This document shows positions 42,399 to 43,722 of a stretch of 64,000 bases of DNA, piece by piece (within the stretch, counting starts at the first letter, position 1; each line of letters opens with the position of its first letter). Both the position numbers and the translations under genes were made by a program. Source of the DNA: an uncultured Gemmatimonadaceae bacterium (GTDB taxonomy: Bacteria; Gemmatimonadota; Gemmatimonadetes; Gemmatimonadales; Gemmatimonadaceae); assembly GCA_963740355.1 (NCBI GenBank), contig CAVUDW010000003.1, positions 1,472,001-1,536,000 on the forward strand, written 5' to 3'. The notes beneath the pieces were generated by a model. That model did no database searches. It saw nothing but the letters and a program-made list of their open reading frames with translations, and was not told the DNA's origin.

Positions 42399-42583
42399 AC
42401 CGCTGACATTACCCTCGTTTCAGTAACCGGCTAGCCGCGTCGAATCGCGCCCTCTCGGTCCTACACTACCGATCTGTCGTTAACGGCCTTGACGCAAAAC
42501 AGCCTGGGGGTACTGCGACAGCCGCAAAACTGCCACAGCTGCAAAACTGCAACTGCGTTAACGCAGAGTAGCTGTGTTGAAAG

Positions 42584-43519
42584 TCAAGCCGTGGCGGGCG
42601 TGGGGGTCCGCCACGGTGTTTGCGTTTTGACCATCGCGTTGAGGATGGTGAGGAGGCGGCGGAGGCACGCGATCTTGGCGACTTTGGTGGGCTTCCCGGC
42701 GGCGCGCAGCGCCGCGTAGACGGGCTTGAGGACCGGATTCCATTGTGTGGCCACATGGGTGGCCATGTAGAGGATCGAGCGAATCGTTGCCCGCCCGCCC
42801 CAGCACACGCGGGCACCGCGGAATTGCCCGGATTCCTGCGCGAGCGGCGCGACGCCCACGAGCGCGGCAATGGCGCGCCGATTCAGCGTCCCCAATTCGG
42901 GCAACAGGGCGACCAAGTACCGTGCGCTCTGCTGGCCGATGCCCGGCACGCTCGTCAGGAGCGTCACCTGCGCTTGCCAGGCCGCATTCCGTTCGATCAG
43001 TTCGCCGATCTCATTGTCGATGTCACGCAGCGCCTCGGCGAGCGCCTCCAACGTCCCGCGCACATTCGTCGCCACGCGCGCGGTCGCGACGTGCAGGCGA
43101 TTCTTCTCCATCGTCTGCATCGTGACCAACTGCCGGCGCCGTTCCACCAAGGCCGCCAGCGCCTGCTGCTCCGCGTCGGCGAGCGGCCGGACGGGTGGGG
43201 CGAGCACGGCGCCAAACCGCGCCAGGATGCGCGCATCCACGCGATCCGTCTTCGCCAACTGGCCGGTGCTGCGCGCGAACTCGCGCACCTGCCGCGGATT
43301 GACGACCGCGACGGGGATCCCGGCGCCGGTGAGCGCGCCGGCGACGGCGCGATGATACGTGCCCGTCGCTTCCAGCACGACCAAGGTCGGCGGCTGCGCG
43401 GTGAGCGCGGTGACGAAGGCGTCGATGTCCGCCGCCGTATTGCGGAGCTGCGTCACCGCACCGTCGTGGACCGCCACATCCAAGTGGGCCTTGCTGACAT
43501 CAATGCCGAGATACGTCAT
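42584..43519 (-). CDS. IS110 family recombinase/transposase
   Basis: GIDVSK, LEATG, KTDRVDA (DEDD), SVPGIG, QESG; GGAGG RBS before ATG 43519. Confidence 0.95.
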
Positions 43520-43524
43520 ACTGC

Positions 43525-43710
43525 CTCCAGGTGACGACCGCGCGCGCCCTGCCTTGCGAGATGCGGGATCGCGTCGGCGTCCCTGGTAGCTGTCCGGGCT
43601 TGTAGCGATCGGGACGACGGCGCTCTGACTCTGCGACGGGCTCACGGCGCCCGGGGCGCTCCGAACGAGCTGCCGCCGTCCCGGAGATTTAGCTTCTGTG
43701 CGAGGAGACA
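43525..43710 (-). ncRNA. Predicted bridge RNA of the IS110 element
   Basis: Two stem/internal-loop domains containing ACAGCTAC and GCAAG (donor guides), and CGCAGAG and GGAGCGCC (target guides). Ends approximate. Confidence 0.8.
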
Positions 43711-43722
43711 TACAAGGCGCGG

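Follow-up and report, generated by a model that had tools for sequence, protein, structure and literature searches.

A compact IS110-group insertion sequence with a predicted bridge RNA in an uncultured Gemmatimonadaceae bacterium

We analysed a stretch of 64,000 nucleotides (nt) from an uncultured Gemmatimonadaceae bacterium (assembly GCA_963740355.1, contig CAVUDW010000003.1, forward-strand positions 1,472,001 to 1,536,000; hereafter the window, with position 1 as its first letter), in which a first-pass annotation made from the letters alone had picked out a complete IS110 element with readable guide segments. The element lies on the minus strand and reads CT-TGTATG...ACAGCTA-CT, with the left end CT-TGTAT at 43716-43710 and the right end ACAGCTA-CT at 42575-42567 (all features are collected in Table 1). 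It is made up of a 197-nt non-coding left end, one gene for a 311-aa protein (43519-42584) and a right end of 17 nt beyond the stop codon. The termini CTTGTAT and ACAGCTACT have no inverted-repeat relation to each other, and the combination of a long left end with a short right end is that of the IS110 group. The gene product matched PF01548 (DEDD_Tnp_IS110, 1.3e-26) and PF02371 (Transposase_20, 2.1e-15), both above the Pfam cut-offs, and its only relatives of solved structure in the PDB were ISCro4 (1.2e-35) and IS621 (5.8e-33), found with phmmer over residues 2-303. Residues D7, E50, D92, D95 and S230 align to D11, E60, D102, D105 and S241 of IS621, the roles of whose catalytic residues have been described (PMC11208158), and the glycine after S230 is conserved. 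The protein therefore has, as far as sequence comparison can tell, the N-terminal RuvC-like DEDD domain and the C-terminal Tnp domain with a catalytic serine that characterize IS110-group recombinases.

The host genome (5.45 Mb in five contigs, 65% G+C) was searched for further copies. It holds seven, each 1150 bp long from CTTGTAT to ACAGCTACT and each with an intact 311-aa open reading frame (ORF). Five are identical, while the two diverged copies carry 21 and 44 differences, of which only 0 and 1, respectively, fall within the 197-nt left end, so that the left end appears to be at least as constrained as the gene. The possibility raised by the first-pass annotation that other copies might have different ends came out negative, as ACAGCTA-CT and CT-TGTAT recur in all seven, which gives the element's boundaries an independent basis. 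The right flank begins with CTGCG in 7/7 copies, and the left flank is TCTGCGC in six copies and ACCGCGC in the window copy, leaving GCGC common to all. With CT as the shared core, the uninserted site reads ..GCGC-CT-CTGCG.., an 11-mer that occurs 32 times in the genome against 13.5 occurrences expected from base composition. The majority of these 11-mers belong to a repeat that resembles repetitive extragenic palindromes (REPs) and has the pattern GCAGTT..TCTGCGCC TCTGCGYC TCTGCGTT.., and several correspond exactly to an occupied site but are empty. All seven insertion sites are located in this REP-like repeat. The empty sites are uninterrupted, and insertion is site-specific without target duplication beyond the shared core, as is found in the IS110 group. 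A crossover at the second CT, which would give the empty site ..GCGCCTGCGTT, was rejected, since that motif is absent from the genome and GCGCCTCTGCG sites are present.

Related elements were collected by scanning one genome per species, which yielded 80 loci. The nearest relative (60% identity) comes from a Gemmatimonadaceae metagenome-assembled genome (MAG), and the others, with 36-52% identity, come from Dehalococcoidia, Binataceae, deltaproteobacterial MAGs and marine gammaproteobacteria. In the majority of the loci the element opens with CTTGTAT and closes with ACAG...CT, which becomes ATAG...CT in the gammaproteobacteria. When RNAalifold was applied unaided to a plain MAFFT alignment of 30 left ends, it returned a 13-pair stem, with compensatory changes in 11 of the 17 pairs predicted. 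We then used a covariance model in which a four-helix structure, written from the window sequence, was combined with the 30 relatives as seed. This model gave 62 matches in 64 sources (about 60 related loci); wherever a locus had sufficient upstream DNA, the match was full-length and immediately preceded the gene, and about 24 gammaproteobacterial loci outside the seed were among those matched (E 1e-11 to 1e-18). In the resulting alignment 91.8% of the cells were paired, compared with 74.0% in shuffles (0/500 as high) and 36-48% when the partners were slid, and 18 of the 26 pairs showed changes on both sides. Helix 1, the outer stem of the target domain, had compensatory changes in 12 of its 13 pairs; the 11-bp stem previously proposed for this domain (43682-43672/43621-43611) is present in the sequence and gains its comparative support from this helix. 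Helices 3 and 4 of the donor domain were 96.6% and 99.2% paired, with two of four pairs in each changed on both sides. The minimum free energy (MFE) fold of the window sequence (-91.8 kcal/mol, z = -2.68) also reproduced the target domain. These results indicate that the left end specifies a conserved two-domain RNA structure, the arrangement predicted for left ends of the IS110 group. Two peculiarities were seen among the relatives. On one short contig, L037, bridge-RNA matches at 120-276 (minus strand) and 302-456 (plus strand) stand head to head, 25 nt apart, and the pair appears to be two related elements inserted back to back. In one Dehalococcoidia genome the copies L070, L071, L074 and L077 differ by 15-nt tandem repeats (ATGACCACTGGGACA-like), which lie between the RNA and the gene and reach into the recombinase start, giving left ends of 259-319 nt.

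In the published guide rules, left guides repeat the top strand of the left target or donor together with the core, and right guides complement the core together with the right target or donor (PMC11208160); handshake guides, the two bases that follow each right guide on its 3' side, pair, once strands have been exchanged, with positions 6-7 of the other DNA (PMC11208158). All four guide motifs singled out by the first-pass annotation, ACAGCTAC at 43593-43586, GCAAG at 43557-43553, CGCAGAG at 43635-43629 and GGAGCGCC at 43662-43655, agree with the sequence base for base, and they follow the IS621 order of left target guide (LTG), right target guide (RTG), left donor guide (LDG) and right donor guide (RDG). 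Guide tests across the relatives were based on 59 full alignment rows, the second match of L037 on the other strand and the truncated L100 and L050 having been set aside beforehand. Rows in which no right end was found (L036, L107, L081 and L099) or the flank was too short (L043, L087, L044 and L076) were dropped as well, and the final set comprised 51 rows, in which 43 target-loop pairs and 26 right targets were distinct. Own pairings had the exact 7-mer complement of the core plus five flank bases in the target loop, on its 3' side, in 36 of 43 cases, against only 24 of 1696 for cross pairings (1.4%), which places the guide match beyond chance. The seven misses were L035, L108, L090, L102, L101, L078 and L073, four of which retained partial matches of 5-6 nt. 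For the left target guide, at least five contiguous bases were shared with the flank in 20/43 own versus 51/1746 cross pairings (2.9%), and by eye several of the misses were single U-for-C changes that would still allow wobble pairing. Where the core is TT, the right guide reads ..AA rather than ..AG. On the donor side, 55 of 59 rows repeated the donor-loop 7-mer beside the core, in the interval -70/+150 around the stop codon, with 11 donor variants covered; the right donor half is invariant, so that the co-variation concerns the left donor guide. The handshake positions behaved as the published rule predicts, with the target-loop base complementary to donor position 7 in 35 of 40 relatives (3/40 for the own target) and the donor-loop base complementary to target position 7 in 39 of 46 (5/46 for the own donor). 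Across the relatives the predicted guides thus change together with their targets and donors, and the donor, target and handshake relations are those of the IS110 group. The earlier view of an intact, compact 311-aa orthologue with a donor and target specificity of its own accords with both the seven intact ORFs and this tracking of partners by guides.

A -35-like TTGACT in the right end and a -10-like TATGTC in the left end come to lie 17 nt apart only where the right end meets the left end; the -10-like element is weak, with 3/6 consensus positions. The relatives show the corresponding spacing: of 32 distinct AC-type end pairs, 26 have TTGA[CT] 17 nt upstream on the other side of the junction. 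On the integrated copy, no sigma-70-like site was seen upstream on the minus strand within the scanned region. The pair fits the junction promoter described for IS621 (PMC11208160, PMC11208158) and may serve in the same way here. The only sigma-70-like site in the scanned region, at 43494-43522 on the plus strand, is located at the start of the gene and faces the bridge-RNA region in the antisense direction, as judged by consensus match only.

Together these features suggest the following course of events. Excision would join the right end to the left end at the CT core, and the joining would set TTGACT 17 nt from TATGTC, so that a bridge RNA of about 175-195 nt might be made from the left end. 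The DEDD/Ser recombinase would bind this RNA, whose target loop is predicted to read ..GCGC-CT-CTGCG.. through GCGCC as a short left guide and CGCAGAG as a full right guide, and whose donor loop is predicted to read the element's own junction ACAGCTA-CT-TGTAT through ACAGCTAC and AU..GCAAG. The two-nucleotide handshake guides (UC and GC) may then pair with the exchanged strands, and recombination at the CT core would insert the element beside a hairpin of a REP-like repeat. Transcription, RNA binding, the circular intermediate and the chemistry are all presumed by homology. We put the probability at about 0.9 that the element is a functional IS110-group insertion sequence of the same kind as IS621 and ISCro4 (IS622).

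Table 1. Features of the IS110-group element and its insertion site, in window coordinates
Feature	Position	Strand	Remarks
Whole IS110-group element	42567..43716	minus	1150 bp including the CT core at both junctions; seven genomic copies of the same length and ends
Left copy of CT core	43715..43716	minus	CT at both junctions in 7/7 copies
Right copy of CT core	42567..42568	minus	CT at the junctions in 7/7 copies
Right donor half TGTAT, start of left end	43710..43714	minus	invariant in aligned relatives
Left donor half ACAGCTA, end of right end	42569..42575	minus	from genomic copies
Left target flank GCGC	43717..43720	minus	common to all seven insertion sites (flank alignment)
Right target flank CTGCG, 5' arm of the 14-nt palindrome CTGCGTTAACGCAG, REP-like unit	42553..42566	minus	from sequence and copy flanks
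Recombinase gene, 311 aa plus stop	42584..43519	minus	DEDD = D7, E50, D92, D95; Ser = S230
Predicted bridge RNA gene	43542..43716	minus	covariance-model match, 99.9 bits
Target-binding domain	43611..43682	minus	outer stem 43682-43672/43621-43611 and 43670-43667/43625-43622; inner hairpin 43653-43649/43641-43637
Left target guide GGAGCGCC	43655..43662	minus	only GCGCC (43659-43655) equals left flank plus core C
Right target guide CGCAGAG	43629..43635	minus	exact complement of CT+CTGCG, 7/7 nt
Target-loop handshake guide UC	43627..43628	minus	U can pair with donor position 7 (A)
Donor-binding domain	43546..43599	minus	outer stem 43599-43596/43549-43546; inner stem 43583-43580/43568-43565
Left donor guide ACAGCTAC	43586..43593	minus	equals right end ACAGCTA plus core C, 8/8
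Right donor guide AU[CUC]GCAAG	43553..43562	minus	discontiguous pairing with CT-TGTAT, one G-T wobble; probable register; layout as in IS621
Donor-loop handshake guide GC	43551..43552	minus	complementary to target positions 7 and 6 (C, G)
TTGACT, -35-like	42582..42587	minus	right end, overlaps the stop codon
TATGTC, -10-like	43707..43712	minus	-35 partner only once the right end joins the left end

Several observations weigh against this assignment. The target loop's inner hairpin, helix 2, reaches only 67% pairing and has poor support, the pair counts come from an alignment fitted to the model, and the loci compared are related rather than independent. The MFE fold pairs the donor-guide region differently from the comparative model. 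A scan of 42000-45500 with Rfam 15 at E values up to 1 gave no match, the library seemingly being without a bridge-RNA family. The handshake counts are dominated by the majority classes (G with C and C with G), although the minority classes follow the rule too. The left target guide matches 5/8 nt at all seven sites, and a site that would match both target guides perfectly is unoccupied; taken together, these last two findings suggest that pairing alone may not explain the choice of site.

In its likeness to IS621 of Escherichia coli, for which a bridge recombinase and bridge RNA have been established (Durrant et al. 2024, PMC11208160; Hiraizumi et al. 2024, PMC11208158), the window element shares the domain order, the catalytic D/E/D/D/S, the long left and very short right end, the CT core, the donor form ACAG...-CT-TGTAT and a two-domain RNA in which LTG, RTG, LDG and RDG are accompanied by handshake dinucleotides. 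The IS621-type layout named in the first-pass annotation is borne out by the Pfam domains, the alignment to PDB structures, the guide order and the CT found in 7/7 copies. The IS621 RNA given in the PMC11208160 supplement shares ..CCGGACAG...C.. and ..GCAAGG.. with the window RNA, and both elements insert in REP-type repeats (PMC11208160). The two nevertheless differ in that the window protein is distant (phmmer 5.8e-33) and has 311 aa against the 328 residues of the solved IS621 chain, its donor left half is ACAGCTA and its target GCGC-CT-CTGCG, its left guide has only 5 matching nt, in a longer loop, and its host is a high-G+C member of the Gemmatimonadota. ISCro4/IS622 of Citrobacter rodentium (PDB 9t56; bioRxiv 10.1101/2025.05.14.653916) is the best solved match (1.2e-35) and has the same architecture, but at 88% identity to IS621 it forms an enterobacterial pair with that element and is not part of the window clade. 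The seekRNA of IS1111/IS110-type elements (Siddiquee et al. 2024, PMC11187229) represents the same phenomenon, in which a non-coding region of the insertion sequence guides target choice. In the IS1111 group the guide RNA lies in a long right end and there are subterminal inverted repeats of 7-17 bp (PMC11208160); membership of that group was rejected, as the window element has a right end of 17 nt and its RNA in the left end. ISPpu9 and ISPpu10 of Pseudomonas putida (PMC12288879; bioRxiv 10.64898/2026.03.19.712850), compared by description, are likewise multicopy IS110-family elements residing in repetitive extragenic palindromes.

The IS110 family is a large one, with thousands of predicted bridge RNAs. 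Such RNAs have been predicted for most IS110 elements (PMC11208160), and mechanism, guide rules and handshake rule have each been published, in keeping with the expectation of the first-pass annotation that the mechanism is described whereas this orthologue may not be. The N-terminal motif of the window protein had 0 occurrences in the part of the PMC11208160 supplement that was searched, whose tree table lists five Gemmatimonadetes recombinases; that table is a sample, and the larger sets may hold this orthologue. The element is a member of a described system of RNA-guided recombinases and not a new mechanism. Modest features set it apart: it is a distant orthologue of compact size in a high-G+C lineage, with a donor and target of its own, a short left guide and a natural sign of recent movement.

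The short left guide deserves closer consideration. IS621 tolerates mismatches far from the core. In the window RNA the left guide matches only GCGC plus the core C, because the left flank is TCTGCGC at six sites and ACCGCGC at that of the window copy; that only the last 5 nt of this guide fit had been noticed at the window locus, and the flanks of all seven copies bear it out. The 5' side of the target loop measures 13 nt here and in the nearest relative, L031, versus 8-11 nt in the others, and at the three sites of L031 the fit of its left guide is likewise imperfect. Just one 14-nt stretch, GGAGCGC-CT-CTGCG on contig 2 at about 1,507,150, matches both target guides perfectly; it is empty and falls roughly 25 codons short of the end of an ORF that stays open over at least 525 codons. 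Checked by eye only, the extra 5' loop bases (UUCGGA) showed no pairing with the flank. An alternative to guidance by both target guides would be that the RNA is made and used, with the site chosen mainly by the right guide together with a REP-like DNA hairpin and with the left guide largely vestigial, similar to ISPpu10. In its favour, besides the partial left-guide match at 7/7 sites, the enlarged loop and the empty perfect match within a long ORF, CTGC(G)..(C)GCAG hairpins are possible in six of the seven right flanks (by eye), and a target stem-loop is reported as a second determinant in the ISPpu10 preprint (bioRxiv 10.64898/2026.03.19.712850). However, the hairpin and the TCT may persist merely because the sites share one repeat family, the empty perfect site may be counter-selected as genic and, being one site, provides no statistic, and the ISPpu10 stem-loop is a 5' extension of the target, whereas the palindrome here starts at the right target half. 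We regard this alternative as unlikely. Similarly doubtful is the proposal that the left guide of this Gemmatimonadota subclade has been reduced, within an enlarged loop, to the core and four bases and that site choice depends on the hairpin starting at the right target half; if it were true, the perfect 14-nt match would stay empty while 11-nt matches beside hairpins are used, and the element would represent a natural structure-gated variant of bridge recombination.

Evidence for recent movement came from contigs of four public metagenome runs, which were compared with the region. On a contig of run X1, the left end of the element runs into 30 letters that are unique in the host genome, where the same 30-letter flank adjoins an empty GCGCCTCTGCG site on contig 2. 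The sequence shared at this junction is far below the word length of the assembler, which argues that the junction is a real eighth insertion, located at a predicted target. Weighing against this conclusion, run X1 may be the source sample of the host genome, and the match covers only 30 of 166 flank letters. The flank seen in run X2 had only an approximate host match (one mismatch, at a different kind of site) and was not used. No joints, circle junction or empty-site form of the window locus appeared in the contigs of the four runs, and the 14-nt junction ACAGCTACTTGTAT was absent from the host assembly; the metagenome contigs break at the element ends, as expected of a repeat. These absences would suit a reading of the seven copies as relics of a past spread after which mobility was lost. 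We consider this improbable, as five copies are 100% identical over 1150 bp, all seven ORFs are intact and the insertion is polymorphic with respect to run X1, and the missing circle junction is uninformative because contigs drop rare forms. Being both multicopy and polymorphic, the element is instead taken to be an intact insertion sequence that was recently active. Its recent activity and polymorphic, multicopy state, together with the predicted handshake guides, go beyond what the first-pass annotation had noticed.

An in-frame ATG is open at 43711 in the ORF listing, but that the region upstream of MTYLGIDV is coding, as an N-terminal extension to a 375-aa ORF (42584-43711) with no RNA gene, is scarcely credible, since the in-frame extension runs into a stop before reaching the element start in 49 of the 58 distinct left ends of relatives, homology with IS621 and ISCro4 begins at residue 2-3 of the 311-aa form, the stems are kept by compensatory changes, unlike coding sequence, and long chance ORFs arise at a G+C content as high as the 65% of this genome. 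The ORF from 43711 is accordingly best read, from these comparisons, as an artefact of high G+C.

Bridge recombinases are under development as tools for programmable genome writing, and the number of orthologues that perform well outside bacteria is small; in one orthologue screen in human cells, 18 of 72 gave detectable product and only one was clearly active. The window element adds no new principle. It provides a compact 311-aa orthologue from a distant high-G+C lineage for which the ends, the natural donor, the natural target and six putative guide segments are mapped, and these mapped parts, together with the natural signs of recent activity, make it a ready candidate for a recombination assay. 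The short left guide and the hairpin-adjacent target also make it a small natural test case for the respective roles of pairing and DNA structure in IS110 site choice.

Other features were noted around the insertion sites. An IS3-family element occupies 43723-44994 of the window, on the minus strand and oriented like the IS110 element, and its end is only 6 bp away from the left end of the latter; at this locus the IS3 element replaces the usual TCT of the IS110 left flank. Its terminal repeats are imperfect (TGTCACGTCC... / ...GGACTAGACA), and it contains orfB (43768-44481), with rve domains, and orfA (44478-44942), which had no Pfam match. At least four further genomic copies of the IS3 end exist, of which one lies some 155 bp away from a different IS110 copy and another directly adjoins a REP-like unit. 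The REP-like family itself, composed of GCAGTT(N)GC units and tandem TCTGCG(Y)(Y) octamers, is present at 42470-42566 and 45000-45400 of the window and at many other genomic places. More than 40 genomic places match the 75 nt to the right of the IS110 element, and the IS110 and IS3 elements both lie in or beside REP-like clusters. A replication-linked orientation of the IS110 copies was considered and dropped: all seven are on the minus strand of their contigs, but by GC skew their co-orientation splits 2 versus 5. Contig 2 has positive GC skew throughout and contig 3 negative, and these contigs, each about 2.55 Mb, look like the two replichores of one chromosome.

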